64,000 nucleotides of DNA from Mobula birostris (lineage: Eukaryota), in the NCBI RefSeq assembly GCF_030028105.1, contig NC_092371.1, positions 240,344,501 to 240,408,500 of the forward strand. Direction: 5' to 3'. Positions 31,191 to 63,065 of this stretch are shown in pieces. Every line of letters starts with the position of its first letter. Position 1 is the first letter of the stretch. The notes under the pieces were generated by a model. It was not told where the DNA came from. It worked only from the letters and a program-made list of their open reading frames with translations, and did not search any database. The position numbers and the translations under genes were made by a program.

Positions 31191-31656
31191 CAGTAGTCCC
31201 CAAACTCGGGGCCGCGGACCAATACATTGCCGCGAAGAATGCAGTGGTGCAGCGGTAGTCGGAACGCACCCAGCACATCTTTAAGATAAAAGCAGAAATA
31301 AACAAGCTAATTAATTAGGTTTTTAAACGCAAACAACAGGAATTCTGTAGATGCTGGAAATTCAAGCAACACACATCAAAGTTGCTGGTGAACGCAGCAG
31401 GCCAGGCAGCATCTGTAGGAAGAGGTGCAGTCGACGTTTCAGGATGAAGGGTCTCGGCCTGAAACATCGACTGCGCCTCTTCCTACAGATGCTGCCTGGC
31501 CTGCTGCATTCACCAGCAACTTTGATGTGTGTTGCTGTTAATTAATTAGGTGCCGGGCGGCATTAAAGATGTGCTGGGTGCGTTCCTGCTACCGCTGCAC
31601 CACTGCATTCTTCTCGACAATGTATCAGTCGGCGGCCCGGAGGTTGGGGACTGCTG
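31191..31656. mobile_element. hAT (Charlie-like) MITE nested in the Tc1-like element
   Basis: TIRs CAGTAGTCCCCAA / TTGGGGACTGCTG, ~95-bp inverted arms and 8-bp TSD GTCAAGAT/GTCAAGAG. Confidence 0.85.
31321..31538. mobile_element. Palindromic Penelope-derived mini-element
   Basis: 79-bp inverted arms at 31365-31443 and 31458-31536; 13-bp TSD TAATTAATTAGGT at 31308-31320 and 31539-31551. Confidence 0.8.
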
Positions 31657-32493
31657 GTCAAGAGGTTCAGTTGTCTTTGAAATTATTTTGACTGTTGGTG
31701 CCAGATGGGATGGTTTGAGTATCTCAAAAACTGCTGATCTCCTGGGATTTTCATGCACAGTCTCTAGAGTTTAGAGAATGATGGGAAAAAAAAAAACAGC
31801 AGAATATCCAATGACCGACAGTTCTGTAGACAAAAATGCCTTATTAATGAGAGTGGTCAGACTGGTTCAAGCTGACAGACAGGCATCAGTAACTCATAAC
31901 TATGCCTTACAACCATGGCGTGCAGAAGAGCTTCTGTGCACGCAGGACATACTGAAACTTGAAGTCAACGGGCTATAGTAACAGAAGACCACAAACATAC
32001 AGAAACACATTCAGAGAGCACTTTACTCGGGACCTCCTGAACCCAGGAGTGGCCTCTGAATGTATATAAGAACAACTTCAGAAATGTAAATTATTTCTAC
32101 AAGGACTAAAAAAAAGGCAGCTTTTGTTTCTTTATTGAAATGTATAACAGCAGACTTTGAAAAATAGAATACGTTGAATTTTTCCAGATGTGGAAAGGAA
32201 CAAAATTAAAGGCAATAATGTTTGATGGTTACTAATAAATTAAGCAAAGCAACCAATCAGAGGGCAATGATGACATTGATTCCAGAAAACAACATGAGGA
32301 GAGTCCAATGTCAGATTAAATAACTGAGAAAAAAGATACAAGTATATTTACAGATATCATTGGATAATATTGATAAAATAAAAGGAAAAGAGGTGAGGCT
32401 TGAATAGCTCTCACCTCTTGAAATGCTAAGTAGCTTCTCTATTTGCAGAATATTCAATGTATAAATAAACTTCAGAAAAAAAAACCAGCTTAC

Positions 32494-32546
32494 CCATCAT
32501 CTGTAAAAGAACTACATTTCCTCTTTCTTGGTGTGAGTTCAGACAT
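32494..32546 (-). CDS. ESCO2: ESCO2 first coding exon (exon spans 32494-32560)
   Basis: ttttcag acceptor; ATG at 32546; MSELTPRKRKCSSFTDD(G)|gtaag; LTPRKRK is the typical ESCO2 N-terminus. Confidence 0.93.
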
Positions 32547-32938
32547 TTTTTTCTTGAAAACTGAAAAAAATTAAAACTAAAGATTATATTACTGCTTACT
32601 TACATAATCAGAAGCAGTTGGGAAGAAGCAGTGAAGATAACTTTATTATGTATACTAACCCATTCAGTTCCACTGTGTACCGTCTATATTTTAAATATTA
32701 ACAAATCTTTGTTGGCTTCTTTTATTTCCAGTTAAATATATCTGTTAGAGAAAAAAATATACAAAAAGTCAATAATTTGCATAATTACTTAACAAGGTAC
32801 AATAGTTGCCAAACCAGAGAGTAATTACGAAAGGCATGAAAAAAATTGCAGAATATTAAAAAAAAATCAATAAATAAGCAACGCACATCAAAGTTGCTGG
32901 TGAACGCAGCAGGCCAGGTGCATCTCTAGGAAGAGGTA

Positions 32939-32976
32939 CAGTCGACGTTTCAGGCCGAGACCCTTCGTCAGGACTG
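32939..32976 (-). ncRNA. Minimal type I hammerhead ribozyme motif inside a 102-bp insertion (32878-32979)
   Basis: Minus strand reads CAGUC-CUGACGA-AGGGUCUCGGCCU-GAAA-CG-UC-GACUG. 13-bp TSD AATCAATAAATAA at 32865-32877 and 32980-32992. Confidence 0.75.
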
Positions 32977-33718
32977 GCGAATCAATAAATAAAATAGGTG
33001 AGTTACATGGGGTAAAGGTGGCCAATGCAACTCCCTTGAAAGCAACTAAAGATGATAAAGAGAAAGATTGGGGGGAGGGGAAGGGAGAGAACTGGTTGAA
33101 TCATGAAGAGGAGGGGGGTGGGTGTGTTTTTCTTGGCCCCACGATGTCAGTGCTTACTTTTTCCTCATGGATGCTGCCTGACCTGCTGAGTACCTCCAGC
33201 ATCTGCAGATATTCTCGTGTTTGTGGTTGAATCATTGATTTTCATTAGTATTTGCAATAGGGAACATGCTGGAAAAATTAATACGAAATACTATTAATAG
33301 TAGTAATACTATTACTACCGTATTAATATTAATACTATGGGTCTCATATTGCAAAATTATGGTAATAAAGGAACTAATGTTGACAGAATGACAAATCTCA
33401 AGGACTGGATGGATTCAGTCACAGGATTTTATGAGAGGTATCTGGGAAAATGCATCATGATCTAACTACAACTTTGAAAGATCTCAATTCACTTAAGACA
33501 TAAAACAGTACAGCACAATACAGGTGCGTGTGTCAATCATCTTGTGCCAACCTTTTAATAAACTCCAAGATTAAACTAACCCTTTTCTTTAATATAGTCT
33601 GCCATTTTTCTTTCACCCATGTTTATTTGTCTCTCAAATGTCCCTGATGTATCTGCCTCTACCACCACGTCTGGCAACCCATTTCACACACACACCACTC
33701 CATAAAAAACCTACCTCA

Positions 33719-36700
33719 GTCCAGGAACGGCCCTACACAATATGTGTGAGAGTTTTCCATACAAGGAAAAAGATTTGCGAAATGTTGAATGCAGCGCTGA
33801 ATAAGAAATTGGGGAACAAAATGTGGCCACTAGGGGGAACGTGGGATATTACCTCGTGAACAAGCAGTAAATGGGATATGGAAAGAGAACTGTGAAAAGA
33901 AGTGCAAATTGCTGATAGAGGAATGGACGGATAAGACAGATGTAAAGTGGAACAGTACATTATTAGCGAGTTGGAGGAATAATGCTTGTGACAAAGGGAT
34001 GTACGGCAGAAGGAACACCAAAAAGTCGGGAGACGCTAAAAGTGGAGTGTGAATGGGTGCCGAAAACGAGAGCAGGGAAAACGATATAAGCAAACCAAGA
34101 CCGGCCTAGATAGGAAAGAAGGGCAGGATCATCAGTCTAAAGTTCAAACTAATAGGGAAACAAGGGATCCCGAACCCATATCTGGCATACCAACCCCGTT
34201 TGAGGACCGTGACTGCGATAAGGAATGGGCACCCACCATACACCCCACCTCCCACCTTATCAGGGTCCAAGTGCACCCAGTGCTCCCGAACCCCAATCCT
34301 CCCGGTATTCAGGTATGGTGGCCGCCCAGGTAAAACAGCGGCAGCAGGGAAGGGGATGCTCTCTTTACCCTGAGATCCGGAAAAGGAATAACGAGGATTA
34401 TTCTGAGACAGGGAGGGAAGAATCCAATAAATCCCCAGAGTTAATGGCTCCACAAAGACAATTGCCCACCCGAATGCTGCCCAATCCACGAGCAGCGGAG
34501 GGGGGACAGCCCTCAGTAATTCCTGTGTATGCACCCTGGAAACCTCAAGAAATGATAATGATCATGAATCAGGCCCCAGATAGAAAAGAAGAACCAGCAC
34601 AGTTTGCTCAGTATGTTCGCAGTACTATGCAAATGTATAATGTGACCCAGCAAGATTTATTCAGTCTCTCTGCATGATTCCCTCAGTTGATGAGGGGCAG
34701 AAATGGAAGGCAGAATTAAGACATCAAACCTATCAGGAGTTACAGGCGGGAATTCATAATGAGAATGAACAGATCATTCAAGTCTTGGAGAGGGCTCTCC
34801 AACAACCTGTAAACATCACTAAAGTACATGAATGCAAACCTAATTACTTTGGTTCTGTCTTCACTAAGGAGGACATGAATAATCTTCCAGAAATAGTAGG
34901 GGACAGAGGGTCCAGTGAGATGGAGGAACTGAGCGAAATACATGTTAGTAGGGAAATGGTGTTAGGTAAATTGAAGGGATTGAAGGCAGATAAATCCCCA
35001 GGGCCAGATGGTCTGCGTCCCAGAGTGCTTAAGGAAGTAGCCCAAGAAATAGTGGATGCATTCGTGATAATTTTTCAAAACTCGTTAGATTCTGGACTAG
35101 TTCCTGAGGATTGGAGGGTGGCTAATGTAACTCCACTTTTTAAAAAAGGAGGGAGAGAGAAACCGGGGAATTATAGACCGGTTAGCCTAACGTCGGTGGT
35201 GGGGAAACTGCTGGAGTCAGTTATCAAGGATGTGATAACAGCACATTTGGAAAGCGGTGAAATGATCGGACAAAGTCAGCATGGATTTGTGAAAGGAAAA
35301 TCATGTCTGACGAATCTCATAGAATTTTTTGAGGATGTAACTAGTAGAGTGGATAGGGGAGAACCTGTGGATGTGGTATATTTGGATTTTCAGAAGGCTT
35401 TTGACAAGGTCCCACACAGGAGATTAGTGTGCAAACTTAAAGCACACGGTATTGGGGGTAAGGTATTGGTGTGGGTGGAGAGTTGTTTAGCAGACAGGAA
35501 GCAAAGAGTGGGAATAAACGGGACCTTTTCAGAATGGCAGGCGGTGACTAGTGGGGTACCGCAAGGCTCAGTGCTGGGACCCCAGTTGTTTACAATATAT
35601 ATTAATGACTTGGATGAGGGAATTAAATGCAGCATCTCCAAGTTTGCGGATGACACGAAGCTGGGGGGCAGTGTTAGCTGTGAGGAGGATGCTAAGAGGA
35701 TGCAGGGTGACTTGGATAGGTTGGGTGAGTGGGCAAATTCATGGCAGATGCAATTTAATGTGGATAAATGTGAAGTTATCCACTTTGGTGGCAAAAATAG
35801 GAAAACAGATTATTATCTGAATGGTGGCCGATTAGGAAAAGGGGAGGTGCAACAAGACCTGGGTGTCATTATACACCAGTCATTGAAAGTGGGCATGCAG
35901 GTACAGCAGGCGGTGAAAAAGGCAAATGGTATGCTGGCATTTATAGCGAGAGGATTCGAGTACAGGAGCAGGGAGGTACTACTGCAGTTGTACAAGGTCT
36001 TGGTGAGACCACACCTGGAGTATTGTGTGCAGTTTTGGTCCCCTAATCTGAGGAAAGACATCCTTGTCATAGAGGGAGTACAAAGAAGGTTCACCAGATT
36101 GATTCCTGGGTTGGCAGGACTTTCATATGAAGAAAGACTGGATGAACTGGGCTTGTACTCGTTGGAATTTAGAAGATTGAGGGGGGATCTGATTGAAACG
36201 TATAAGATCCTAAAGGGATTGGACAGGCTAGATGCAGGAAGATTGTTCCCGATGTTGGGGAAGTCCAGAACGAAGGGTCACAGTTTGAGGATAGAGGGGA
36301 AGCCTTTTAGGACCGAGATTAGGAAAAACTTCTTCACACAGAGAGTGGTGAATCTGTGGAATTCTCTGCCACAGAAAGCAGTTGAGGCCAGTTCATTGGC
36401 TATATTTAAGAGGGAGTTAGATATGGCCCTTGTGGCTATGGGGGTCAGGGGGTATGGAGGGAAGGCTGGGGCGGGATTCTGAGTTGGATGATCAGCCATG
36501 ATCATAATAAATGGCGGTGCAGGTTCAAAGGACCGAATGGCCTACTCCTGCACCTATTTTCTATGTTTCTAAGCCTGGAGAATCGGGACCTGACTATTGG
36601 GAGTGATTTGTGGCCTGCTACGACACTTTTGCAGGAGACCAAGCCTTTAATAATGGGAATCCATCCCCCCAGTTTAATGCCTTACTGCTCCAATGTTAAC

Positions 36701-36985
36701 CAAGTTAGCCAACATGATTAAAACAAATAATATGGATTAGCCTGACAATGACCAAAATCGAATGCGACGAGCTTTGACATATTAGGACCCAGTTTTCGAA
36801 TCCCGATCAACCCCTAAGGGAACTAATATTAAAGGTGAATATGTTTAGCGGGAAGTGAAGGATGCAAGCGGGCTATCTCTGGGGATCAGAAATGGGAACA
36901 AAAACCTACCAAGGGACAGGTGGGGACAACCTGTCTAGAAAGTAACAGGCAAGGACGCTTCCTGCCATGAGTACCACCCCTCAGG
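33719..36985 (+). pseudogene. gag: ERV gag (frameshifted, CR1-interrupted)
   Basis: WPLGGTWDI; LPPYQGPSAPSAP; VYAPWKPQEM...PDRKEEPAQF. An MHR-like VHECKP|KPGESGPDYWE*F is restored when the CR1 is removed. Confidence 0.8.
34844..36568 (+). mobile_element. Young 5'-truncated CR1 LINE with intact RT frame, inserted in ERV gag
   Basis: Open to the stop at 36482 with NYRPVSLTS, GVPQGSVLGP and FADD; CR1 3' tail CTATGTTTCT; CTAA at both junctions (34840-34843, 36569-36572). Confidence 0.95.
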
Positions 36986-39230
36986 AAGAGCCCAATATAA
37001 TATCATAAGTTGCTGGAATTCCAATTCCGTTTATGATTGGGATGGGGGCAACCACATCCACACTCGATCGGGAAATAGCATTGGAAAAGGGATTCCAGCT
37101 ATCAGACGCTACAATCACTCTGTCTGGGTTCGATGGTACGGAACGTACCCAGCCATTGCAGGTAGAATTCCAGGGGGACCCAGTGTGAGGTTTCATTTAC
37201 AGCCACCACCCGTCTGGGATGTAATCTAGCAGGGAGTGGCTTGCTCTGTCTGTTGGAAGTCGAGATTCTATGCACAGACAAGGGTATCACCCTGGGACTT
37301 GTGAACAACCGACGGCTTCTCCAGTTACCGACCCTTCCAGTGGTGGGCACTTAACCCGGACTCCACTTCATTTGGACCCCCTCTGCCAGTGGTCAACCCC
37401 ATGTGACCCTGTGCTATGACCCTACGGGGTGCACCACTGAGGAAAGTCAATATTATGCACTGCTCGAAGGACAGAAGTTCCCAGTCACAGTGATTGGAGA
37501 GATTAAAGGAAGAGAGGGCAGTGCATTACTGGCTGAAGTTCCGGATTTCCTTTGGCGACAGACAGGACTGCTGGTTCCCCATTCCACCATTAGGGTTTGC
37601 CCTGGGTTCAAGCCAAAGAGCCTAGGGTTTCTTGCCTACACCCTGACGAAATAAGCCTCCAGCACCAAGGGAGACTGGCAAGATTTGCCCGCAGGCCAAC
37701 TCCGATACTGGAAGGAGTCTGAGGTGAAGATGAGACATCTGGTAAGACACTCTTTTAATATTGACTGAACCCAAGACATTGTACCCCATCTCTGGGCAAT
37801 TTCAGGCCACGAAGTCGGCCGCACCAACTGCGCCCCCCCCCCCCATCCGGATCACTGTGAAAGGAGGACAGACTCTCCCATCCATTCCGCAATACCCCCT
37901 CAAGCCCGAGGCAACGTTTTATGAGGATGGAAGCTCTTTTGTGGATCCAGCAGGAAAACAATAGTGATGGACAATGAAGTAAGCCTCTTTTGAAGCAGCT
38001 GTCTCCGCCCAGAAAGCCGAGTTGTTTGCTCTGACTTGTGCCTGTACCCTAGCCACAGACAAAAGTGCCAACGTTTACACAGACTCCCGTTATGCATTTG
38101 GAATTGTACATGACTATGCGGCTCTCTGGGAACATGGGGATTCCAGACTTCCTCTGGCCACCCCATTAGTAATGCCACCTTTGTACTCACCGCTGTACAG
38201 CTACCTGTGCTCATTATTAAATGTGCGGCCCACATCCGCTTGCCCGACCAGGTCACTAAAAGCAATGTTAGCAGATTAGACAGTGAAAAGTGCGGCACAA
38301 TCCTCGGTAGTTGTAGTCCCCTCGGGTTCCAAGACTTAAGCAGAATGGGTTTGCCAGACATGCAGGAGGTACATATTTTTCAGGGGGACGCCTCTGAGGA
38401 GGAGTGCAAACTGTGGTCCCAGTTGGGGTGCCAGAAAGACCCTGACCTAGGTTTTTGGATCACCCCAGCGGGACAGGTTTGTGCTCCTACACAGTTTTTA
38501 ACCAGTATTGGTTGAGTATGTACATAATTGTACACATTTGGAAAAGGAGGGAATGGTTGGTAACCTGTATCCTGCACACCGGGTACGACTCCCTTGCCAG
38601 GTGGACCTTTTTCGTGTCTACAAGTTGAATTTATTGAATTACCTAGAGTACATTGCTATAGATACTGCTTAGTTATTATAGATGTGTTTAATAGATGGAC
38701 TGAAGCTATTCCAACTCCAATAATATTGCTATGAGTTGTGAAGGTATTATTATGGGAAACAATTCCCAGGTACGGCCTGCCAGAGACGCTGAGCTCTGTC
38801 AATGGCTCACACTTTGTGGTGAAAGTAAACTAAGGGGTATGTAACGAACTAGCTATCAAGCAACAACTCCACTGTGTACACCACCCACGGGCCGCTGGCA
38901 TAGTGGAGAAAGCCAATGGCACTCTGAAGCGTAAAGGGGAAGAGATGGGAAAATATATATATGCCAACTAACCAAAATTTTCCAAGCATTACATTCACAG
39001 GTACGACAGACTACAAGGAAGAGAGCTACCCCGCAGAGAGGAGTGACTATCCCACCATAGAACCTGGGAATTTTATCCTGGTCAAGAACTGGGATCGAGG
39101 GAAACTTAGACCTCAGTGGAGAGGACCATATCAGGTGTAACTGACCACTCCCACGGCTGTGAAACTGAAGGGGCAATCTCGGTGGATACATCGAACAGAC
39201 TGCAACCGTGTTACTGCAGGAACTGAGAAG
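36980..39230 (+). pseudogene. pol: ERV pro-pol (protease, putative 2H module, RT deleted, RNase H, integrase)
   Basis: IPFMIGMGATTSTL (mutated DTGA) and CNLAGSGLL. QYPLKPEA is joined directly to FYEDGSS. NVYTDSRYAFG; LVIIDVFNRWTEA; GIVEKANGTLK; WRGPYQV*LTTPTAVK. Confidence 0.88.
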
Positions 39231-39253
39231 AAGGACTCTTGGACTAAAGGAAA

Positions 39254-40137
39254 ATGTATTGGTTGATAGTGGTGCTTGTGCTTATGCCTTGAGAGGACTC
39301 ACCCCAGCATCCGGGGACCCCCATGACAACACCGTTCTCTCTGTCACACCTATGCCAAACAGGTAGAACCAGGGGCCTGCTGGGTTTGTTCCGAAATTCC
39401 GCAGCATGGTAAAACTATGATCCCAATGTTGGTATCCCACTCAACCAGTGAGGAATTTTCAACCTGGGCTTTCTCAAATAACACCCGGGAAAGTGAGGTG
39501 AGGAACCGTGGTCCAGTCAGAGATGACTGTGGCTGTCAGTGTTTTGAGGGATGGTATCTCAGGCCCCCACCAAACGGAACTTCCTATACTGGGAAACATG
39601 CATCCTGGCCATACTTGCAGGTGCCCAGCAGCGGAGCAGTAAATGCCACCTGTTACTTTAATTTCCAGGGAGGGGAAGATGCAAGTTTTTCTGGGAAATA
39701 GCAGCTGTACCACCGATACCACTGCAGACCCTTCCCAACCAGTAAATAGCACCCACTGGGCATGTGGAAATCGGCCCTATGTATGGCTCCCAAGGGAAAC
39801 TGCCAGCAGATGGGATCCACAAAGTCCCAGCAAAGGTTGTTGTTATTTAGTACCCTACCTGATAGTTATAACTGAGACTGAACGATTTCCAATGATCATT
39901 TTTCCCTCCTATGGAGTAGCCAGGAATTCACGAGAGATAATCAGTTTGGCAGTAGCACTTGAGGAGCTGGCCAATAAAACTGCAGTGGCCCTGACAGAAA
40001 CACAGGCCCAAGTAACAGAAATATCCTCTGAAATGATTGCAATCCAGCAAACAGTCCTACAGAACCGGATGGCCTTTGATCTCATTCTGGCAGAAAAAGG
40101 AGGAACATGCGCCTTTGGGCCCGGAGATTTATCATGA
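39254..40137 (+). pseudogene. env: ERV env, gamma-type, frameshifted and C-terminally truncated
   Basis: Hydrophobic leader MYWLIVVLV, CWVC at 39378-39389, WACGNRPY, heptad repeat and immunosuppressive domain LQNRMAFDLILAEKGGTCA. Confidence 0.88.
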
Positions 40138-40156
40138 AATGATAAAAAGGAGGGAA

Positions 40157-40720: not shown

Positions 40721-40877
40721 AGAACGCAAACACGAGAAAATCTGCAGATGCTGGAAATTCAAGCAATACACACAAAATGCTGGTGGAAAGCAGCAGGCCT
40801 GGCCACCAGCATTTTGTGTGTGCTGCGTGTTGATGAGAAGCTGGTCTCCCGAGTTTTATTCAGATTCGACTTTAACA

Positions 40878-42900
40878 CCCGCTGCCCTCGGCTCTCCCCC
40901 CGGGCTCCCGCTGCCCTCGGCTCTCCCCCCGGGCTCCCGCTGCCCTCGGCTCTCCCCCCGGGCTCCCGCTGCCCTCGGCTCTCCCCCCGGGCTCCCGCTG
41001 CCCTCGGCTCTCTCCCCGGGCTCCCGCTGCACTCGGCTCTCTCCCCGGGCTCCCGCTGCCCTGCCCTGTCCCCGGGCTCCCGCTGCCCTCGGCTCTCCCC
41101 CCGGGCTCCCGCTGCCCTCGGCTCTCCCCCCGGGCTCCCGCTGCCCTCGGCTCTCCCCCCGGGCTCCCGCTGCCCTGCCCTGTCCCCGGGCTCCCGCTGC
41201 CCTCGGCTCTCTCCCCGGGCTCCCGCTGCACTCGGCTCTCTCCCCGGGCTCCCGCTGCCCTCGGCTCTCTCCCCGGGCTCCCGCTGCCCTCGGCTCTCTC
41301 CCCGGGCTCCCGCTGCCCTCGGCTCTCTCCCCGGGCTCCCGTTGCCTTCGGCTCTCTCCCCGGGCTCTCGCTGCCCTCCCCTGTCCCCGGGCTCCCGCTG
41401 CACTCGGCTCTCCCCCCGGGCTCCCGCTGCCCTCGGCTCTCCCCCCGGGCTCCCGCTGCACTCGGCTCTCCCCCCGGGCTCCCGCTGCCCTCGGCTCTCT
41501 CCCCGGGCTCCCGCTGCCCTCGGCTCTCTCCCCGGGCTCCCGCTGCCCTCGGCTCTCTCCCCGGGCTCCCGCTGCCCTCGGCTCTCTCCCCGGGCTCTCG
41601 CTGCCCTCCCCTGTCCCCGGGCTCCCGCTGCCCTCGGCTCTCTCCCCGGGCTCCCGCTGCACTCGGCTCTCCCCCCGGGCTCCCGCTGCCCTCGGCTCTT
41701 CCCCCGGGCTCCCGCTGCCCTCCCCTGTCCCCGGGCTCCCGCTGCCTTCGGCTCTCCCTCCGGGCTCCCGCTGCACTCGGCTCTCTCCGCGGGCTCCCGT
41801 TGCCCTCGGCTCTCCCTCCGTGCTCCCGCTGCCCTCCCCTGTCCCCGGGCTCCCGCTGCCCTCGGCTCTCTCCCCGGGCTCTCGCTACCCTCCCCTGTCC
41901 CCGGGCTCCCGCTGCCCTCGGCTCTCTCCCCGGGCTCCCGCTGCCCTCGGCTCTCCCTCCGGGCTCCCGCTGCACTCGGCTCTCCCTCCGGGCTCCCGTT
42001 GCCTTCGGCTCTCTCCCCGGGCTCCCGCTGCCCTCGGCTCTCTCCCCGGGCTCCCGTTGCCCTCGGCTCTCTCCCCGGGCTCCCGCTGCCCTCGGCTCTC
42101 CCCCCGGGCTCCCGCTGCCCTCGGCTCTCTCCCCGGGCTCCCGCTGCCCTCGGCTCTCTCCCCGGGCTCCCGCTGCCCTCCCCTGTCCCCGGGCTCCCGC
42201 TGCACTCGGCTCTCCCCCCGGGCTCCCGCTGCCCTCGGCTCTCTCTCCGGGCTCCCGCTGCCCTCGGCTCTCTCCCCGGGCTCCCGCTGCCCTCGGCTGT
42301 CCCCGAGCTCCCGCTGCCCTCGGCTCTCCCCCCGGGCTCTCGCTGCACTCGGCTCTCTCCCCGGGCTCCCGCTGCACTCGGCTCTCTCCCCGGGCTCCCG
42401 CTGCACTCGGCTCTCTCCCCGGGCTCCCGTTGCCCTCGGCTCTCTCCCCGGGCTCCCGCTGCCCTCGGCTCTCTCCCCGGGCTCCCGCTGCCCTCGGCTC
42501 TCTCCCCGGGCTCCCGCTGCCCTCGGCTCTCTCCCCGGGCTCCCGCTGCCCTCGGCTCTCTCCCCGGGCTCCCGCTGCCCTCGGCTCTCTCCCCGGGCTC
42601 CCGCTGCCCTCGGCTCTCTCCCCGGGCTCCCGCTGCCCTCGGCTCTCTCCCCGGGCTCCCGCTGCCCTCGGCTCTCTCCCCGGGCTCCCGCTGCCCTCGG
42701 CTCTCTCCCCGGGCTCCCGCTGCCCTCGGCTCTCTCCCCGGGCTCCCGCTGCCCTCGGCTCTCTCCCCGGGCTCCCGCTGCACTCGGCTCTCTCCCCGGG
42801 CTCCCGCTGCCCTCGGCTCTCTCCCCGGGCTCCCGCTGCCCTCCCCTGTCCCCGAGCTCCCGCTGCCCTCCCCTGTCCCCGAGCTCCCGCTGCCCTCGGC
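40878..42900. repeat. GC-rich minisatellite, 29-bp unit, ~70 copies
   Basis: Consensus CGGGCTCCCGCTGCCCTCGGCTCTCTCCC; the 29-aa periodicity of the spurious ORFs equals 3 x 29 nt. Confidence 0.98.
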
Positions 42901-42960
42901 GCCCCTCAGCCACCCACCCTCCCGCTGCCCCTGAGGTATTTTCGCCCCCGGCCCACTCAC

Positions 42961-43010
42961 CGCTTCAAACTGCGCCCCGGCTGCGAATTCGCGCGTTCAA
43001 GCTGCGCGCC
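42961..43010 (-). other. ESCO2: Probable ESCO2 non-coding exon 1 (5' end undefined)
   Basis: Strong donor GCG|GTGAGT at 42961/42960 inside a CpG-rich region. The ATG exon has its own acceptor, so an upstream exon is required. Confidence 0.7.
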
Positions 43011-43772
43011 TTCTGCATCGATCTGCCTCCGGGCCTCGCTCATTGGACGCGCCTGACGGCTCTCCCTCACCAATTGGTCTGCCGAAGTGTCAGTCAGAAG
43101 TCCAGGTCCCGCCCCTGGTGTGCCGCCAGTGCCGCCGCCGCCGCGCCGAGTTGATCTGACAAAGTCTGAGGTTGGAGTGAAAATTGCGGAATCCACGTTG
43201 ACTTTAAAGCAGAAATCAAATGAGAAAATAAGTGTCATTTTTAGGAGCAAAATTACCTCTTAATTGTTTTAATTTCCCTCTCCCTTTCTAGTCCTTATGA
43301 AACAGCTCATCCCTCTCTGCCATCCGATTTCAGAACGGACATTACCCATAAACGCCACCTTTTTATTTCTATTTTTGTACTACTTATTTAATTTAATTAT
43401 TTAAAACATATAAACTTACTGTAATTCGTGTTTTTTTTCCTATTATTGCATATTCTACTCCTGCCGCAAAGACAACAAATTTCACGACATATGCTGGTGA
43501 TCTCGAACCAGATTCTGATTTAGATTGGTATTAAAGCAAGGAAGCGAAAAGTAACTGCAGAGATTAAACCAGCAGGATTGCGCAGGGGAAAACGAGAGGT
43601 TACGTGACGAGCATTGTAAACACTATTCACATAAGGCGCATCAGTGTAAATTCATTAACATATCTTGGTATTCCTACAAGTCCCAGGGCGCCCCGCGGTG
43701 ATCACGTGGGTCTCCCTCACCGTCCCGGACTCTCGGCGTCTGGAATCACCGCTGCTGTTGTCTGCTGTGGAA
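42964..43772. promoter_or_regulatory. ESCO2/CCDC25 divergent promoter region
   Basis: CHR-like TTTGAA (minus, 42964-42969) and CTTGAA (42996-43001); E2F-like TTCGCGCG (42988-42995); two CCAAT boxes on minus (43042-43046, 43073-43077); E-box CACGTG (43703-43708). Confidence 0.7.
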
Positions 43773-44449: not shown

Positions 44450-45735
44450 TTATAGAAAAGTAGAGGATAGAAATAAGCACTTTGGCCCATTAAGTCTATG
44501 CCGAAACATTTAAACTGCCTACTCCCATCAACCTGCACTTGGATCATTACTATCCATACCCCTTCCATCCATGTACCTATCCAAATTTCTCTTATATGTT
44601 GAAATTGAGTTTGCATGCACCACTAGCACTGGCAGCTCATTCCACACTCTCACAGCCCCGAGTGAAGAAGTTTCTCCTCATATTCCCCTTAAACTTTTCA
44701 TCATTTCTCTTTGATCCATGACCTCTAGTTGTAGTCCCATCCAACTTCTGGAAAAAGCCTGCTTGCTTTTACTATCTATACCCCTCATAATTTTATTTAC
44801 CTGTTTCAAATTTCCTCTCCATCTTCTGCGCTCCAAGCTTCAGGCATGCTGAGAGCCACACTCACGTCTCCATCTACATCAACGGAGCTGTAGTGGAGCG
44901 TGTATCAAGCTTCAAGTTCCTTGGTGTCCACATTTTCAAGGATCTCACCTGGTCCCTGAACTCCTCCATCCTGATCCAAATGGCGCAACAGCGCCTTTAT
45001 TTCCTGCGGATCATCAAGAAAGCTCACCTCTGTCCCAGGATACTGACGGACTTTTACCGCTGTACCATTGAGAGCATACTCACCAACTGCATCTCAGTGT
45101 GGTATGGCAATTGTCTCGTATTGGACCACAAAGCTCTCCAGCGTGTGGTGAAAACTGCCCAGCGGATTATCGGCATCCAGTTGCCCACCATTGAGAACAT
45201 CTACCATAAATGCTGCCTGGGCAGGGCGAAAAGCATTATCAAGGATGCATTTCACCCTAACCATGGACTTTTTACTCTCCTCCCATCGGTAGACGCTACA
45301 GGAGCCTCCACTCCTGCACCAGCAGCCACGGGAAGAGCTTCTTCCCTGAGGCTGTGACACTGCTGAACCTCTCATCACAGCGCTAAGCAATATTGCACCC
45401 ATATTGTACTGTCTCAGTACTTTTATATTTGTGTGCTGTAGCACGCACTTTATATTTGCAGTTATTTTGTAAATTACACTATTCTTTGCATTTCTGGTTA
45501 GATGCTAACTGCATTTCATTGGTTTTGTATCTGTACTCGGCACAATGACAATAAAGTTGAATCTAATCTAATAAAGTCCTGACCTATTTAACCTTTCCTC
45601 ATAACTCAGGTCCTCTAGACCTGGTAACATCCTTGTAAATTTTCTTTGCACTCTTTCAGCCTTGTTTACATCTTTCCTGAAGGTAGGTGACCAAAACTGC
45701 ACACAATACTCCCAAGTTAGCCCTCACCAAACTTT
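44450..45735 (-). mobile_element. CR1 3' fragment interrupted by a Rex1/Babar-type LINE
   Basis: CR1 tail at 44450-44837, continuing at 45573-45735. Confidence 0.75.
44838..45572 (+). mobile_element. Rex1/Babar-type LINE 3' end
   Basis: ORF 44893-45357 FKFLGVHI...QQRLYFLR...FYRCTIESILTNCISVWYG; AATAAA followed by an (AATCT)n tail. Confidence 0.85.
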
Positions 45736-53016: not shown

Positions 53017-53114
53017 GTAATGATTAAATGGGTTGCTTTCTTGACAAAGCAAAAAAATCTTTCACATTTTGGAATGGGTGTCGTAGCATGGACAGGTTTG
53101 TTGGCAGTGTGTGT

Positions 53115-53325
53115 GTGTGCTCGGTGAAGCAGTCTCCCTGTCTCCATCGGGTCTCACCGATATACAGGAGACCACATTGGGAGCACCAGACACAGTAGAC
53201 GACCCTAAGAGACTCACAGGTGAAGTGTTGCCTCACCTGGAAGGATTGTTTGGGACCCTGAATGATAGTGAGGGAGGAGGTGTAAGGACAGGTGTAGCAC
53301 TTGATCCACTTGTAAGAATAAGGCA
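53115..53325 (-). mobile_element. Penelope-like element GIY-YIG endonuclease fragment
   Basis: FTCESLRVVYCVWCSQCGLLYIGETRWRQGDCFTEH. Confidence 0.85.
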
Positions 53326-53652: not shown

Positions 53653-53759
53653 GTAAGTATGACACTGAATCGATAGGAACTAATGCAGAAGCCCTGCTTG
53701 ACTGCTTAATTATTTAAATTATTGTTGATTATTTTTAAAAAAGAAGTAAACTGAGTGTC

Positions 53760-54530: not shown

Positions 54531-54727
54531 AGTATGATTGCTGTTTTAAAGTGATTTGAGTATATTTAAGATATTAAGTTTTTATGGGTGCTAAGGAATC
54601 ATGGGATATGTTCAGGAAAATGATGTTTAAAAAAATCAATTGAATGGTGGAGTTGAATGTCTTGTTCCTATGTTCAAGTGAGTACTTATTTTTAATCATT
54701 TGTGCAACTCATTTTTATTATATCTAG

Positions 54728-54930
54728 GTGAAGGTAATTGCAGTGGAGAAAAAGATAAATGAAATTTTAAACCGGTTGGAGAAAACCAGAAGTGAACGAT
54801 TTCCAGATTTGGCAGCTGAGAAGGAATCCAGAGATCGTGAAGAGCAGAATGAGAGAAAAGCGCAAATTCAAGAAATGAAACGAAAGGAAAAAGAAGAAAT
54901 AAAGAGAAGAAAAGAAATGGAAGAACTTAG
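54728..54930 (+). CDS. CCDC25: CCDC25 coding exon 7 (coiled coil)
   Basis: [20 protein letters not shown]...PDLAAEKE...EMEEL(R). Confidence 0.97.
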
Positions 54931-55286
54931 GTTTGTATAGGCATAGTGGGCAAGAGCTTGTATTGTCTTTATGTAACTGTATTTGAGAGATTCAGCCATT
55001 ACATTCATCAAATTAGCATTGGTTTGGGATAACTTATTGGCTGAGGCAGTGAAATTACCTGGGAAATAGTGGGTCTAGTATTGTAGCTAGGAAATGATTG
55101 GTGGAAGATTTAAACCAATATAAAGAAAAGAAAACAAGGTGGGGAAAAGAGAAGTTATACAGAAAGAATGATGCAGAATTTTTTAATATTGTAAACTTTA
55201 AAGTGCCATTATTATGAGGTGTGTATGGGAATGCAGCCATCATTCAGTAAAATTGAAAATGTATTGGAAACTGTAATATGGCAGAT

Positions 55287-55599
55287 TATTAAGGCATCCG
55301 TTAGTCTTGCGAGACCATGGATCTGTACTTGGAAAGTCTTCACTCTCCAGGGCGCAGGCCTGGGCAAGGGTGTATGGAAGACCGGCAGTTGCCCATGCTG
55401 CAAGTCTCCCCTCTCCACGACACCGATGTTGTCCAAGGGAAGGGCAAGGGCTGATACAGCTTGGCACTGGTGTCATTGCAGAGCACTGTGTAGTTAAGTG
55501 CCTTGCTCCAGGACAAAACGCGGTGCCTCGGCTGGGGCTTGAACTCACGACCTTCGGGTCGCTAGTCGAATGCCTTAACCACTTGGCCACGTGCCCACA
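55287..55599 (-). mobile_element. Well-preserved tRNA-derived SINE
   Basis: Minus strand: A-box TGGCCAAGTGG, B-box GAGTTCAAGCC, central GAGCAAGGCACTTAAC, 3' ...AACGGATGCCTTAATAAT tail. Confidence 0.8.
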
Positions 55600-55644
55600 C
55601 AATATGGCAGATACAACAATAGAAAAGTGGCTACATTTTGAATA

Positions 55645-56205
55645 AACAACACAAAATGCTAGAGGACTTCAGAAGGCCAGGTAGCATCTATGGAAATCAA
55701 TAAACAATCAATGTTTCAGGTCAAGACCCTTCATCAGGACTGGAAAGGAAGGAGAGAAGTCAGGGTAAGAAAGTGGGGAGGGGAGGAAAAAAGTACAATG
55801 AAACTGAGAAGGGGGGAGGGTGAAGTAAAGAGCTAGGAAGTAGATTTATGAAAGAGATAAAGGGCTGAAGGAGGGAGAATCTGATAGGAGAGGGTAAAGA
55901 CCAAGGAAGAAAGGGAGGAGCACCAGAGGGAGATAAAGGGTAGGTAAGGAGATGAGGTGAGAAAGGGAAATGGAGAATGGAATGGTGAAGTGGGGAGTGA
56001 GTAATTACTGGAAGTTCGAGAAATCAAGTGGTCATAACATCAGGTTGGAGGCTACCCAGATGAAATGTAAGGTGTTGCCCCTCCAACCTGAATGTGGCCT
56101 CATCGTGGCAGTAGAGGAAGCCATCTACTGAGAGGTCGGAATGGGAAATAGAATTGAAATGGGTGGCTGCTTGGGAGATCCTGCTTTCTCTTGCGAACAG
56201 AGTGT
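55645..56205 (-). mobile_element. Penelope-like 3' end with hammerhead-like motif at 55705-55742
   Basis: RLEGQHLTFHLGSLQPDVM (PLE C-terminus) followed by CAGTC-CTGATGA-AGGGTCTTGACCT-GAAA. Confidence 0.75.
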
Positions 56206-56634
56206 AGGTTCTCGTGTTTGACATTTTGAACAAGTTTGTATCTTTTTCAAGAAAGAATCAAAATGGACATGATTGTTTAGAGCTAGAATAGTGCTGAAAC
56301 TAGAATCTGCATGAATAATGTTAAGAAGCGCAAGAAAATAATTCAGAATTATGGATATATTGCAGACCATCCAAATAGCTGTGATAGGATTTTTAAAGAG
56401 TAGATCAATAATTAGTTTGAACTAACTGGAAATGAAAGTATTAGTGTATCATCACAATTAAGATCACATGGGGAAAATAACACTTTATTTCTATTGGATT
56501 CAATAAATACAGAACAATATATTAAAGTTATAAAACAAGGATATTTGACAGGAGAATTATAAGTAAATTTTGTGATGCTTGATTTCTTCCTAACTTAAAA
56601 CAGAAAAAATAATATGTTTGTATTAACTCCTTAG

Positions 56635-56680
56635 GTGCTATTCTAGTCTTATGAAATCTGAAAACATGAGTAGCAATCAG
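56635..56680 (+). CDS. CCDC25: CCDC25 coding exon 8
   Basis: (R)CYSSLMKSENMSSNQ. Confidence 0.96.
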
Positions 56681-57225
56681 GTAAGTAAAAGTAATTAGAT
56701 GTTAAAGGTTACGGTGTCAAATGACAGCCCAAAAATAATTTTATTTAGTCAAATTGAATGAATTTCCTATAAAAATTCATTTATAAAGTTGTTCGCTAAG
56801 CTGGATCCTGAGAAGCCCCTGCAGTAAAAGATGTTTTCTGTTGTCCCTAGTCAGAGATACCCAAAAGTATTGAAAATGTTGAAGTAATTTTAAAATATTA
56901 AATTTGTAAAACATCTTTATTCTAAAACTTATTCAAAACTTTAAAGATAAGTAAAATGGCAGAAATACCTACACAAGTTAATGAGATTTCAGTATATTTA
57001 AAATTGAAGGGCCAGATTCGAAATGCATCGGTCCTAGTTCACTACATCTCTGTTGAACCACTGGACCTGATGCTGAGTCCAGTGGTGGAAATGGAAGCTC
57101 AGATGCAGATCAAACTCCTCCCTGATTTCTGCATTGCTGTGCACTGGAATGAAAGTTGGGAATGAGGTGACTCACACATTACCACCAGTCAGCTATTCCA
57201 CAGAGAACTAATTGTTGGAATGATT

Positions 57226-57640
57226 TGAAACATAGAAATCTACAGCATAATATAGGCCCTTTGGCCCACAATGTTGTGCCGACCATGTAACCTACTCTAG
57301 AAACTACCTAGAATTTCTCTTACCGCATAGCCCTCTATTTCTCTACTTGTCTAAGAGTCTCTTAAAAGACCCTATTGTATCCGTCTCTACCACCATTGCT
57401 GACAGTGCATTCTGCACACCCACTGTTCTCTGTATAAAAAACTTACTTCTGACATCTCCCTTGTACCCACTTCCATGCACCTTAAAACTATACCCCCTTG
57501 AGTTAGCCATTTCAGCCCTGGGGAAAAGCCTCTGGCTATCCACATGATCAATGTCTCTCATCATCGTAAACAGCTCTATCAGCCCCCTTTCATTCTCTGC
57601 CGCTCCAAGGAGAAAAGGCAAAGTTCACTCAATCTATTTG
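57226..57640 (-). mobile_element. CR1 3' end fragment
   Basis: ORF 57343-57621 DSQRLFPRAE...FKRLLDK plus tail. Confidence 0.8.
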
Positions 57641-57852
57641 GTCCAGTATTTTTTTCATGACCTCAGAAAATCAGATTTGCAGCAGATAAAATAGCCTTTT
57701 TTTAAATAGTATGTGGCAGCCTGTGTGTATTTTTTTTAAAGCAAGTGAACGCTCTGTAGCGTCCCTAATAACGTGTATTTGGAGTACGGCCCTACAAACA
57801 GCAATGCAAATAATCAGAAAATCATATGAGTCAGAGATAAGTGTTATTGAGG

Positions 57853-58225
57853 CTGGCAGGGTGGAGATACATCTCTACCAAAGGAGATGTAAGGCACTTC
57901 TTCCCTCTGCTAGACTGCAGGTCACCCTTGGGCAAGGAATAGCACCTGCTTAGTCCCCCCCCCCCCCCCCACTCCCGATCAGGGTCACATGAAGCCATGG
58001 GTGTAGGTGGATGGTCGTATCAGCAGCTGGTGTATATCACAAGTCCTGGTTATGTGACCACTGACACCAGGGAGACAATCTCTGAAGAGTATTGACAATG
58101 TCTGGTGTCACCCATCGGGTAAAGACACTGCCCAGAAGGCAATGGCAAACCACTTCTGTAGAAAAGTTTGCCAAGAGCAATCATGGTCATAGATCACGCA
58201 TGTCGTAGGACATGGCACTTCATGA
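57853..58225 (+). mobile_element. SINE-like repeat with RTE-type tail
   Basis: Second copy of 10280-10612; GAAGGCAATGGCAAACCAC. Confidence 0.6.
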
Positions 58226-58644
58226 ACGAGTGGCGTGTTGTTAGGGTTGCAATGGGGAGTTCAATTTTTTTTAAATTACCTAATGGGATCTTTTGGGTCC
58301 ATTTAAAGGTCAGACTGACTTTGCAGTCTCACCTGAAAATACCTCCACTCAAATGCAGTCAGTCTTGAAAAAAACAGCCTAGAGTTTGCACAAGAATCTC
58401 TTGAGTAGAATGATTTGGAAAGAATCATGAAGATGCTTAAAATTTTATAGGTAGTGAGATGTGATTGCAGTCTTTGACGATTAAAAATTGTTTAGGATTT
58501 CTCCTTTTGTTATTAAGTCGTTTTGCCTTTCCCATTGCCATTCCTGAATTATTTAATGAGCATTTGTCCTTTTAACTATTAATGCTGAAATGGTGCTGCA
58601 ATTACAAATTCCAGATACATATGTAGGTTTCAGCATTTCTCTGT

Positions 58645-59070
58645 ATATAAGGTATAGGAGCAAAATTAAGCCATTTGCCCATCGAGTCTGCGCTGCCATT
58701 TATTTCATCATGGTGTCATGGCTGATCCATTTACCCTCTTGGCCCCAATCTCCTGCCTTCTTCCCATATCCCTTCATGGCCTGACTAATCACAAATCTAT
58801 CAACCTCTCCCTTAAACATACTCAATGACTTGGCAAAGAAATCCCCAGGTTCACCACTTTCTGACTGGAGAAATTCCTCCTCATCTCTGTTCTAAAAGCC
58901 TCTATTCTGAGGCTTTGTCCTCTGGTCTTGGATCCCCCACTATCATTCCAGTGAATAGATGCCCAGGGCCATCAAACGCTCCTAATATGACAAGCCTTTC
59001 AATCCCAGAATCATTTTCATGAATCTCTTTTCAGCCCTCTCCAATGTCAGCATACCCTTTCCTAGATAAG
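58645..59070 (-). mobile_element. CR1 3' end fragment
   Basis: Similar to 29055-29400. Confidence 0.7.
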
Positions 59071-59286
59071 AGTAAGTGTCATTACATCCTATTATTCAAA
59101 TAATGGGCTTAAAATCCACTTGCCACCAACATGATCCAGATTTTGATGCCAGGAACCGGTTGTATTTCCTTGTCATCTTCTTCTCCAAGTATTTCTTCCT
59201 CCCATTTCTCCCACATGAGCTTGTGAAACTGGCATTGAAAATAACCTCAGTAAACAAAATAATTTCTGATTTTCCTTTTTCTGTAG

Positions 59287-59319
59287 GATTGTGGTTATGA
59301 CTCTGACGATTTCATGTAA
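59287..59319 (+). CDS. CCDC25: CCDC25 last coding exon
   Basis: ctgtag|DCGYDSDDFM*. The spliced CDS totals 627 nt = 208 aa. Confidence 0.95.
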   Translation, partial: DCGYDSDDFM

Positions 59320-60171
59320 AGTCTGCTCAAAGCTATCACATAGACATTTTAAATTGGAAGATTTTTGGCCTGCCGCAAAACCCCTTTTGCTTTTGACAGT
59401 TTCCTGAGGGGACCAGTACCTTTTTGAGTTTGAAGATGTTTATTTTTTCCTTTGATCTACTAAGTGGAAAATTAAACTTGTAAGTGCTTTTTCCGTTTGA
59501 AAAAAAATTCATTTGTGAATTCATAGTTTTGACATGCTTGGTGTGGATGCTCATTTAAAAGAACGGCTTATTGCCAGAAATACTTCAGCTGGAGTTTTTC
59601 TTTAAACTGCCTAGTAAATGAACTATTAAAATAATTAAATCTCATGCAAGAGAAGTTTGATTCTTATTTTGAGCAATGTTCACAACAGTGGTCACAAATT
59701 ATGTTGCACCTAATGAGAAGTTAAAGCAGTGTGGAAATATTTTACTTGAAATCACTTGCTCTTCAACTTAATTATGCTTAATCAAATCAATATTACAATA
59801 ATTTATTGAAATGACATTGCATTTATGTAAAAATGGATTAAAATTATACAATTTGGAAACTGAAAAAAGAATGAGTCTTGCAGCTAAAATGTTAGTCTGT
59901 TTTGACTAATCAATGCTGGTTGACCTGATATCTTTTAAGTATTTTCTTTAAATATATGGTAGGTTATTGAGAATTGAAAATTCTCTAGACTGCCACATGT
60001 TATGGAACCAGTACAGGTGATGCATGGTCTCTTCCTCTTTGAAGTAGAAGATTTTTGTTGCAAGGCTACACCAGATCTTCTTTGTATGGTATAACCTTTG
60101 TTACATCTTATTGTAATGTTTGTTCTGTTCAGCCCAACCCAGGGCGAAAGGTGACAAGAATGAACTCTGAA

Positions 60172-60177
60172 AATAAA
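60172..60177 (+). terminator. Candidate CCDC25 polyadenylation signal
   Basis: AATAAA ~850 nt after the stop, followed by T-rich sequence. Confidence 0.5.
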
Positions 60178-60299
60178 AGTATTTTGTAATTAATTGTTAT
60201 CTAATTATTGTCTTTCTTCCATAACATATTCTCAAATGTTGACAAAATTCCAACTGTGTCTAACGGTCATGTTAATTCATAGTTAGTAGTTACTACCCT

Positions 60300-60760
60300 T
60301 TACACTGGTGTCCTCCATCTCTGTCCTTGGCCATTTTCTCTGTTGTGCCTCAGGTGTAGTTCAGAGTCCTCAGTTTTGCCTCTAAGGTACGTTGCCAAGT
60401 TGTCTTTGGTCTTTCGCGTGTCCTCCACCCTTTGGGGGTCCGATGAAATTCTGTCTTGATGATGGAGTTGGTCTCTCTTCTTATCTTGTGCCCAGTCCAT
60501 CTCTATCCTGATGATGATTGTGGCTATGTTCCCTTGAAGGAGTAGGGTGCATTGGAGATCTTTCCTGGCCGGAAAATACAGTGGATCTTCCGGATGCACA
60601 CGGTGTGGAATGACAACAGCTTGGCGAGGGGATTCTCTGTCATCCACCAGCATTCTGACCCATACAAGAGTGTGGACAGAGCGCAGCTGTAGTGTGGACA
60701 CCACTTGGTTGACCCTCACATGTTGCTCATTGATCTGAAGACATTTCTAGCTTCGCTGAG
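60300..60760 (-). mobile_element. Degenerate RTE-clade LINE C-terminal fragment
   Basis: By-eye minus translation resembles FH..CIRKI...W..KISN...W.G and G.R..GRP..TW of RTE ORF2. Confidence 0.55.
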
Positions 60761-62246
60761 TCTACACTGGATGTCGTCCTTAGTCCTACAATCCTGCCGA
60801 ATGATGCTTCCAAAATTCAGTTAGAGTGCATGATAAATACTTTCAGCAGTCAGCTGCAATGTCAAATAAGCCATAAATTTGAAAACATTTGATATTTTGG
60901 GAAATCTAATAATTATTTGTTTTCCACGGACGAGCAAGTGACAAGATGTTTATGTGCCTACTCGAAAGAAAAACAAAGTTGTATATAAATCCATCTTTTA
61001 TATAAATGTAAAAAAATGTTTCAAATTATATAACATTTAAAACCAGAATTGTCACAAGTCAGTGCAAATATTTTGTATATAAAGGTGATTGCTTTCCAAG
61101 GTTGTTCTTCCACCTGTAAATATGGAATTTACATTTGCCTTTAAGCCTCCATACCTTGCCCCTGCTCTGATCTTCACCACATTAAGTATTTCCCTCCCTA
61201 TAGCTTTCTATTGCCATTTCTTCATAATATCATTTCACACTCTGAAAAACATTCAGATGCATTCCTTCATCCACCTTGCAGTCCATATCCATATTTCATA
61301 CACCTTGCAATCCAACTCCAGATATTTAACAAGACTTTCTTAACTGTTTAGTCTTGAGCCCCCTTTTGGACTGTATATTACTATTGCTTTTGATCTCAGT
61401 TATCCTCCTTCACTTTTGATGATTTTGACTCTTAGTTGCCCGTTCTCTCAGCGATTTCATTTGTCAATTCATAACATGTCTAGTGCACTGGTTTTGTTGG
61501 ATCCCATCAAATATGCAGTAGGAGTCCAAGTTTACCAAATCACCCACTCATGGGATCACTCTAGAGTTCAAAGGTATTCAGCTAAAATTTCTTCGGAGCA
61601 AATTCTTTCTAAATCTCTATTTTTCTTCATCGCCTGTTTCACCTCAATGTTGCAGCCAGAAGGATGCCTGACTTTTGCATTCATTGCGGTAGCCTCTTGA
61701 AAGGGGATATTGAAGGCATTCTTTTATTCTTCCAAGTTTCCTGGCCATGATCCATAAGGGTCTATACCTTGAGGCCTCCATTATTCAAGATCAAGCACGG
61801 GTGAAGCCAGGTCAGTATGATATGGAGAGTAAGCTATTGCCCACATAGCAGGCTCCATCTCTCTGTGCATCTGATGAAACCAAAGGAACAGATTGGCACC
61901 AGCAACAGCACAGGAGTTGCCAGTCAGCATTGAACTCAACTTCCTTAGGGACTCCAACTCTTTTTTTTTCTCCCCCCTCTGGTTTTCCTGCTGAAGCCTT
62001 CCCTATGAATGGGGATGACCACAAAGCAGCAGAGGGGGTTTGAGATCAGAGTTTTCCTTCTAGATGAGCTGACAAACACTGTCTGCCCAAAGCAACTGGT
62101 TTTAAGGAGCCGGTGACCCTTCTGTCAGTAGAAACTGTTCTGCTAGTCTTGGTAGCTAAGCCACATGTGAAGGGCCAGGAGCTGGAATTGGTTGTCAGAG
62201 TCTATTTGAGGTGCACACCATTGGGAGCATTTAACAGGGAGCTTAT

Positions 62247-62508
62247 CCCACTTGCCACCCCTGGCCATAACAACCTTAAGGAACCAATAGTCTATATACT
62301 GTAGTTAAAATCTGAGGGTTTTTTTTTAAAGATTCTATATGAAAAAAAGATTTTTTTAAGGTGTAATTAGAATGCCACCCCACTTGCCACCCCTGGCTAT
62401 AACAACCTTAAGGAACCAATAGTCTATATACTGTAGTTAAAATCTGATGGTTTGTTTTTTAAAGATTCTATATGAAATAAAGATTTTTTTAAGGTGTAAT
62501 TAGAATGC
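62247..62508. repeat. ~130-bp direct tandem duplication
   Basis: 62247-62375 is repeated at 62379-62508 with few differences. Confidence 0.95.
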
Positions 62509-62957
62509 TTGTTTACTAGATAGTTAATTTGTTACTGTACTTGGTACAAGCCTATTACTCTTCAATTTGCCTGTTTGACCAGTGAATGCTCATTTTTGGA
62601 ATCATTCCTGTAAATAACCATAGGATTATTGCAATAGAGTTTATGGGCAGTTTCCCAACAAATGCTGGGACTAAGCTTTTGAGATTTTTACCTAACTAAA
62701 ATACTTTTTCTTTTCATGTGCTTTGTTTGAGATCTTAGAGTAATGAAATCAATAATTTTCAATTGGAAAAATAACTTCAGCAAACATCAAAGTAACTTTA
62801 AATCTGATTAGACAATGCAATGGAAAATGGTGATCAAACTGTTCAGTTTGCTCTCAGGTGAGATTGTAAGCCATATGATCAGTCTAGGATTGCCTGCCCC
62901 GAGTACGCCAGGTAACTTTAATAAGTGTTCTTCTGTAAATGAGTTATGACTATGGGT

Positions 62958-63065
62958 TTAAACGCAAACAACCTGACGAAGGGTCCCGGCCTGAAACGTC
63001 GACTGCACCTCTTCCTACAGATGCTGCTTGGCCTGCTGCGTTTACCAGCAACTTTGATGTGTGTT
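62958..63065 (+). mobile_element. 108-bp Penelope-derived mini-element with hammerhead core
   Basis: CTGACGA-AGGGTCCCGGCCT-GAAACGTC at 62973-63000; 15-bp TSD GTTATGACTATGGGT at 62943-62957 and 63066-63080. Confidence 0.8.

Follow-up and report, generated by a model that had tools for sequence, protein, structure and literature searches.

Endonuclease-containing (EN+) Penelope elements typically carry an inverted, truncated pseudo-long terminal repeat (pLTR), a 30-40-bp tail at one end and a target-site duplication (TSD), which in the rotifer examples measures 8-10 bp (PMC3846280, PMC8557442). Here we describe three tiny inserts in a 64,000-nt stretch of the Mobula birostris genome (contig NC_092371.1, positions 240,344,501 to 240,408,500, hereafter the window) that had been taken in a first-pass annotation for a retrozyme-like family built on hammerhead ribozymes. 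The analysis covered the window and the public contigs of four sequencing runs (X1, X5, X9 and X12). We find that the inserts are short EN+ Penelope insertion units, an already known kind. They are TSD-flanked copies of a Penelope-like pLTR that keep the hammerhead cut site, and their 5' ends favour the edge of hammerhead stem I. Probably they were generated from RNA that the ribozyme had not cut, by the reverse transcriptase and endonuclease of the element itself.

Three described systems are close enough to serve as references. The PAc protein of the anole Poseidon element cuts and extends both strands of AT-rich DNA; reverse transcription starts at two internal sites that bound the tail, at about +85 and +119 from the hammerhead AUG, and hammerhead-dead RNA, an unprocessed template, was inserted equally well in vitro (PMC11167929). 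Single minimal hammerheads dispersed in thousands of copies per genome, together with opposite-strand pairs, have been described in metazoans as truncated Penelope-like elements (PLEs) that are inactive as monomers (PMC4209133); the passages of that work devoted to them contain no TSD or breakpoint analysis and do not name cartilaginous fish. Non-LTR retrozymes, finally, are defined by tandem units, at least two complete hammerheads and circular RNAs (PMC7229834), and have been proposed to derive from pLTRs, their monomers being described as derivatives (bioRxiv 10.64898/2026.07.22.740005).

The three related inserts, i1 (31321-31538, 218 nt), i2 (32878-32979, 102 nt) and i3 (62958-63065, 108 nt), lie exactly where the first-pass annotation had placed them. 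Its claim that each is bounded by a perfect direct repeat of 13-15 bp was also confirmed, the repeats being 13, 13 and 15 bp long. As a control, segments of 100-220 nt were drawn at random from the window with a slop of 6 nt on either side, and only one in 2,893 had a perfect flanking repeat of at least 13 bp. The coordinates of the inserts, their arms and their relatives are collected in the table below. Public contigs were aligned to 32760-33100. The junctions of the i2 insertion were present in runs X1 and X5 (organisms A and B). In contig record 9 of run X12 (organism C) the site is empty: 32877 is followed, after 10 other letters, by 33001, and one TSD copy is present. These data establish that i1, i2 and i3 are genuine retro-insertions with their own TSDs, and the earlier proposal of independent, Penelope-derived retro-insertions holds to that extent. 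The four arms compared differ from each other at 2-8 of 76 core positions. Copies of this family are very abundant: 33,995 contigs matched it in X1 and 56,516, 2,953 (X9) and 14,146 in the other runs, although contig counts and summed depth do not equal copy number and were not used as such. Run X9 was only guessed to be RNA, so its contigs carry no expression information.

Table. Insert features and related elements in the window (TSD, target-site duplication; MITE, miniature inverted-repeat transposable element).
Feature	Position	Strand	Remark
i1 left TSD, 13 bp	31308..31320	+	TAATTAATTAGGT; perfect repeat
i1 tail-bearing arm: stem II 3' strand and GAAA, via the GUC site, to the tail end	31321..31443	-	
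i1 inverted tail-less arm: begins within CUGAUGA, stops at the internal 3' end plus 2 extra nt	31444..31538	+	
i1 right TSD	31539..31551	+	TAATTAATTAGGT; perfect repeat
i2 left TSD, 13 bp	32865..32877	+	AATCAATAAATAA; single in the organism C empty site
i2 solo tail-less unit: hammerhead stem I 5' edge to the internal 3' end	32878..32979	-	
i2 complete minimal type I hammerhead motif: stem I CAGUC/GACUG, CUGACGA, stem II, GAAAC-GUC	32939..32976	-	pattern scan
i2 right TSD	32980..32992	+	AATCAATAAATAA; perfect repeat
i3 left TSD, 15 bp	62943..62957	+	GTTATGACTATGGGT; perfect repeat
i3 15-nt arm from the tail end	62958..62972	-	
i3 inverted tail-less arm: starts at CUGACGA, lacks the stem I 5' strand	62973..63065	+	
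i3 right TSD	63066..63080	+	GTTATGACTATGGGT; perfect repeat
i4, fourth inverted copy: 78-nt tail-bearing arm and ~24-nt inverted arm, hammerhead-free	40723..40826	-	
575-nt 5'-truncated older-subfamily copy: endonuclease C-terminal remnant, 3' untranslated region, hammerhead motif, internal 3' end	55646..56220	-	
Splice-acceptor-like motif in the 575-nt copy: branch-like CTGAC, 16-nt pyrimidine tract, CAG; ends within the stem I 5' strand	55738..55764	-	candidate
Old inverted insertion: inverted pLTR arm with partial tail joined to an endonuclease C-terminal remnant	21389..21575	-	
Palindromic MITE-like host element, centre split by i1; 97-nt arms 89% alike	31188..31659	.	

The architecture of the inserts became clear when all arms were read on the strand carrying CUGANGA...GAAAC-GUC. 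Two 3' ends recur, an internal one 92 nt from the core AUG and a tail end 40-45 nt further on. The tail end is that of the left arms of i1, i3 and i4, and the internal end is shared by the right arms of i1 and i3, by i2 and by the 575-nt copy. Accordingly, i1, i3 and i4 are head-to-head pairs in which one arm has the tail end and the other stops internally. The 40-45-nt extension is found on one arm of i1 and of i4 and is missing from the opposite arms and from i2, and in i3 the tail end is likewise present on one arm only. As had been noted, i1 and i3 open with an identical tail end before inverting, after 123 nt in i1 and after 15 nt in i3, and a head-to-head inverted, 5'-truncated copy is also seen in i4 and in the 21.4-kb copy. 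Arm lengths range from 15 to 123 nt; the arms of i3 do not overlap, whereas those of i1 overlap by about 77 nt. The only TSD candidate flanking i4, a copy that the first-pass annotation had not picked up, is a degenerate repeat (10 of 13 positions). All four arms (4/4) are colinear with the pLTR and hold the GUC site internally, their breakpoints lying 11, 25, 36 and 28 nt upstream of the cut site and none at it.

This arrangement matches that of EN+ Penelope/Poseidon units in the tail on one arm, the head-to-head inverted arm, the TSD, the solo units and, by way of an older relative, a probable link to the end of a GIY-YIG-type open reading frame (ORF). In contrast to the rotifer examples with their 8-10-bp TSDs, the inserts described here are only 102-218 nt long and have TSDs of 13-15 bp. 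The likeness to the anole Poseidon PAc system extends to two start sites of reverse transcription around the tail, about 85-135 nt downstream of the hammerhead core, and to the extension of both strands, AT-rich targets and an uncleaved template; the internal end is at +92 and the tail measures 40-45 nt here, compared with an anole tail from about +85 to +119. Tiny TSD-flanked genomic products and a preferred 5' end at stem I are what set the present inserts apart from the text passages of the PAc account. Single motifs and opposite-strand pairs are shared with the metazoan PLE hammerheads (PMC4209133).

Longer relatives in the window point, by way of an older subfamily, to a Penelope ORF. The first-pass annotation had pointed to a related motif after the end of a Penelope ORF at 55705-55742; the motif belongs to the 575-nt copy, a TSD-flanked insertion (55633-45 and 56221-33, 12 of 13 positions matching) that had been overlooked and that extends 510 nt beyond the cut site. 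Its endonuclease remnant matches the ray proteins P0002 (tblastn E 3e-17) and P0003, both of which have an RT-like YIDD/YVDN motif. GIY-YIG hits were obtained in two of the five proteins scanned, both under the Pfam cut-off. The closest named relatives of a PLE remnant from the window are ray proteins, at 77-81% identity, which by itself would suggest a batoid host. A full HMMER search with a PLE remnant returned 41 hits; Pfam found nothing in two PLE remnants, and a word-indexed search with a 50-aa piece and a search of Atlas were blank. The family profile search returned 14 matches at E<=1, 10 of them below 1e-5. No reverse-transcriptase-coding stretch of the insert family was found in the window. 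Loose contig ends at 32975 in X1, X5 and X12 open with a common upstream sequence, showing that longer elements belong to the family as well. Two further relatives are an isolated Penelope GIY-YIG fragment at 53105-53320 (-), 79% identical to P0002, and an older pLTR-like copy at 33095-33238 that lies about 100 nt from i2, has lost an internal segment and is bordered by an imperfect repeat of 11-13 bp. In four gene models (P0001, P0003, P0008 and P0017) Penelope endonuclease fragments seem to be fused to unrelated host proteins, the partners being mucin-2, a kinase-like protein, a 7TM receptor and RecQ5, which suggests either frequent exon capture or misannotation. Exact-pattern scans for the unit found no locus in metagenome contigs or in prokaryote genomes; a 17-nt pattern matched four loci in viral contigs, which were taken as chance.

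From these structures we infer the enzyme and the order of priming as follows. The element's endonuclease would nick both strands of AT-rich DNA with a stagger of 13-15 nt, and cDNA would be primed at either of two fixed sites, about 92 or about 132-137 nt downstream of the AUG/ACG position of the core. Priming of a single 3' end at the internal site would yield a solo unit such as i2 or the 575-nt copy, and priming of both nicks, one at each site, would yield a head-to-head pair with the tail on one arm, as in i1, i3 and i4. Because its arms do not overlap, i3 fits twin priming on a single RNA. The overlap of about 77 nt in i1 would instead need two RNAs or reuse of the template, a route that would agree with the predicted dimer. 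Fold-back self-priming was considered for i1 and rejected, since the tail is missing from the arm that would be the template and the fold-back of one cDNA cannot supply it. The tiny size of the copies would follow from the frequent termination of cDNA synthesis at the stem I 5' edge.

What distinguishes the family is where its 5' ends fall. In the window, three of the four arms break off 25-36 nt 5' of the cut, within a 12-nt stretch on the 5' side of the core, and among the 11 DNA junctions listed from the contigs eight have one end at 32971-32975, seven of these eight lacking the family's upstream letters. This clustering hints at a discrete RNA start or stop at the edge of stem I; the peak could reflect the start of a transcript, a splice-linked end or a structural stop. 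Our preference is run-off at a discrete RNA 5' end, presumably the leader of the element's own transcript, since internal priming 90-135 nt away would give exactly this size class; a processing site or a structural stop of the reverse transcriptase would be the alternatives. In Drosophila virilis Penelope the promoter lies within the pLTR and an intron begins 46 nt after the start (PMC2377424); the end of this intron falls at the 5' boundary of helix I (PMC4209133). The 575-nt copy contains a splice-acceptor-like motif at the corresponding edge; this pattern has a single occurrence on both strands of the window, but it was defined post hoc and the untranslated region is pyrimidine-rich anyway. 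Taken together, the positions of the 5' ends allow the tentative proposal that the family's main template is a discrete RNA of 100-140 nt from the stem I 5' edge, arising either at a start or at a splice-acceptor-linked processing site that would be conserved with the D. virilis intron end. A cap-templated extra C at initiator-like motifs was also considered, but three junctions are too few and i2 does not fit. In the literature searched, mostly non-subscription and exclusive of figures and bioRxiv supplements, we found no tiny TSD-flanked PLE copies starting at stem I.

Several observations weigh against this reading of the inserts and their 5' ends. Both i4 and the left arm of i1 stop well before the edge of stem I is reached, and the last four letters of i2 fit neither the upstream letters of the family nor a base templated by a cap. 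X1 and X5 share junctions, probably from the same insertions, so that the 11 are not all independent, and the pile of loose ends at 32975-77 is partly an artefact, as the reference stops resembling the family there. The other end of the junction falls at 32937-32945 in seven of the 11 listed DNA junctions, one of them exactly at 32943; a minority of arms may thus come from cleaved RNA, or from a stop of the reverse transcriptase at the base of stem I. The junction table gives no joint type, and these figures concern the 12 of 61 junctions and the 24 of 457 loose ends that were listed. Lastly, the link of the young subfamily to an ORF runs solely via an older relative that is 73% alike.

We also considered that the inserts might descend from a separate, non-autonomous master resembling a short interspersed nuclear element (SINE), about 100-140 nt long from stem I, transcribed by itself and mobilised in trans by Penelope proteins. 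The very high abundance (33,995 contigs in X1 alone), the narrow sizes and the 5' clustering would suit such a master, and i1 and i3 share a minor variant, a G at the equivalent of 32926, that accounts for about 6% of X1 depth. Non-autonomous PLE derivatives and trans mobilisation of pLTR-only units have been published (PMC3846280, PMC8557442). However, the family sequence extends upstream into a longer untranslated region, the ORF-bearing copy has the same ends, and both arm lengths (15-123 nt) and sizes vary, so that we regard a dedicated master as improbable.

Somewhat less probable still is plain random 5' truncation of full-length Penelope, which differs from the explanation we favour only in denying a preferred 5' end. 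PLE insertions are heavily truncated (PMC8557442), i4 and the left arm of i1 do end elsewhere, and the 575-nt copy runs on for 510 nt past the cut site. Chance truncation nonetheless sits poorly with eight of 11 listed junctions ending within 5 nt of each other and with three of four window arms ending inside 12 nt at the 5' side of the core.

The hammerhead itself was then weighed as a possible source of the RNA ends. A pattern scan for the minimal type I hammerhead gave five hits, of which three fall in i2, i3 and the 575-nt copy. Among i1-i3 the motif is complete in i2 only, with a predicted cut between 32944 and 32943; i3 lacks the stem I 5' strand and neither arm of i1 has an intact CUGANGA. 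A 50-nt fold of i2 forms stems I and II yet is no better than shuffled sequences (z -0.46), and folding z-scores were non-significant for all five stretches, the best being -1.68. Rfam reported no hammerhead at the gathering score across the window, and none of the 27 matches at E<=10 in 31250-33300 was a hammerhead, the matches being of microRNA type, driven by the hairpin of the i1 palindrome, or weak noise. The breakpoint clustering at the core that had been reported is borne out in that the 5' ends are non-random, but none lies at the cleavage site. Cleavage by the hammerhead would give a 3' product whose first base is the G that follows GUC (32943 in i2), and since every arm runs past it by 11-36 nt, an origin from ribozyme-cleaved RNA is unsupported. 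The units are monomers or head-to-head pairs and not tandem: none of the five tandem arrays in the window involves the unit and no circular permutation was found there. One 40-nt joint that goes back was seen among the contig junctions, and tandem units may therefore occur elsewhere in the genome. None of the 24 listed loose ends is at 32943/44. Like non-LTR retrozymes, the inserts are non-coding, PLE-related, associated with a type I hammerhead and flanked by TSDs longer than 4 bp; unlike them, they are single or inverted and their hammerheads are mostly incomplete. The inserts are thus not retrozymes by two testable defining features, tandem units and ends set by self-cleavage, and the retrozyme-like system proposed at first, only one of whose three members has a complete hammerhead, finds no footing here. 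Despite the complete motif of i2, the junction ends around 32943, the single joint that goes back and the reported descent of non-LTR retrozymes from PLE pLTRs (bioRxiv 10.64898/2026.07.22.740005), retroposition of hammerhead-cleaved linear or circular RNAs of 100-220 nt is very unlikely, being contradicted for i1-i3 by the retained cut sites, unaccompanied by tandem arrays or circular permutations in the window or by listed loose ends at the cut, and at odds with the inactivity of minimal hammerheads as monomers (PMC4209133) and the dispensability of cleavage in vitro (PMC11167929).

The surroundings of the inserts are rich in other repeats. A second copy of the MITE-like palindrome split by i1 was not found within the window. 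Host exons at 27903-28985 (-) and about 54730-54931 (+) gave no Pfam hit and resemble ESCO2 and CCDC25, which form a divergent gene pair in vertebrates; if this identity is right, the inserts would lie within introns or flanks of these genes. Long reverse-transcriptase ORFs of long interspersed nuclear elements (LINEs) are found at 16355-18291 (-) and 34641-36482 (+), presumably of the CR1/L2 type, and the ORF at 44791-45357 (+), with a PF09004 hit (E 3e-16), is likely the C-terminal part of a LINE. The stretch 34200-40140 is probably a decayed endogenous retrovirus, LINE-interrupted at 34641-36482, with an ORF at 34222-34677 that we assume to be Gag-like and another, env-like, at 39643-40137 that gave a weak match to TLV_coat (E 0.0012). 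Just downstream of i4, a GC-rich minisatellite of 70 copies of 29 bp (40878-42900) is open in several frames and accounts for the long ORFs at 40.7-43.1 kb; it adjoins a stretch resembling a CpG island at about 42900-43150. A direct tandem duplication of 132 bp, 96% alike, occupies 62247-62508.

Most likely the shortest copies of a Penelope-type retrotransposon, the inserts are largely ordinary save for a tendency of their 5' ends to fall at the front edge of the ribozyme. Complete insertions of 100-220 nt with clean TSDs bear on what the Penelope hammerhead does and on how the inverted-plus-tail structure arises; they lend themselves to an easy census and match, in vivo, the two-start-site, two-strand model established in vitro. 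Failing a stem I peak, they would be ordinary truncated copies. If the peak holds genome-wide, it would give a handle on the start of the template RNA and would argue against cleavage as what defines that start. Should the discrete-template proposal be true, the Penelope leader would be present in ray genomes as many thousands of run-off copies resembling SINEs; these short copies would map the RNA 5' end and both priming sites, and the hammerhead region would mark the edge of the template without cutting it.

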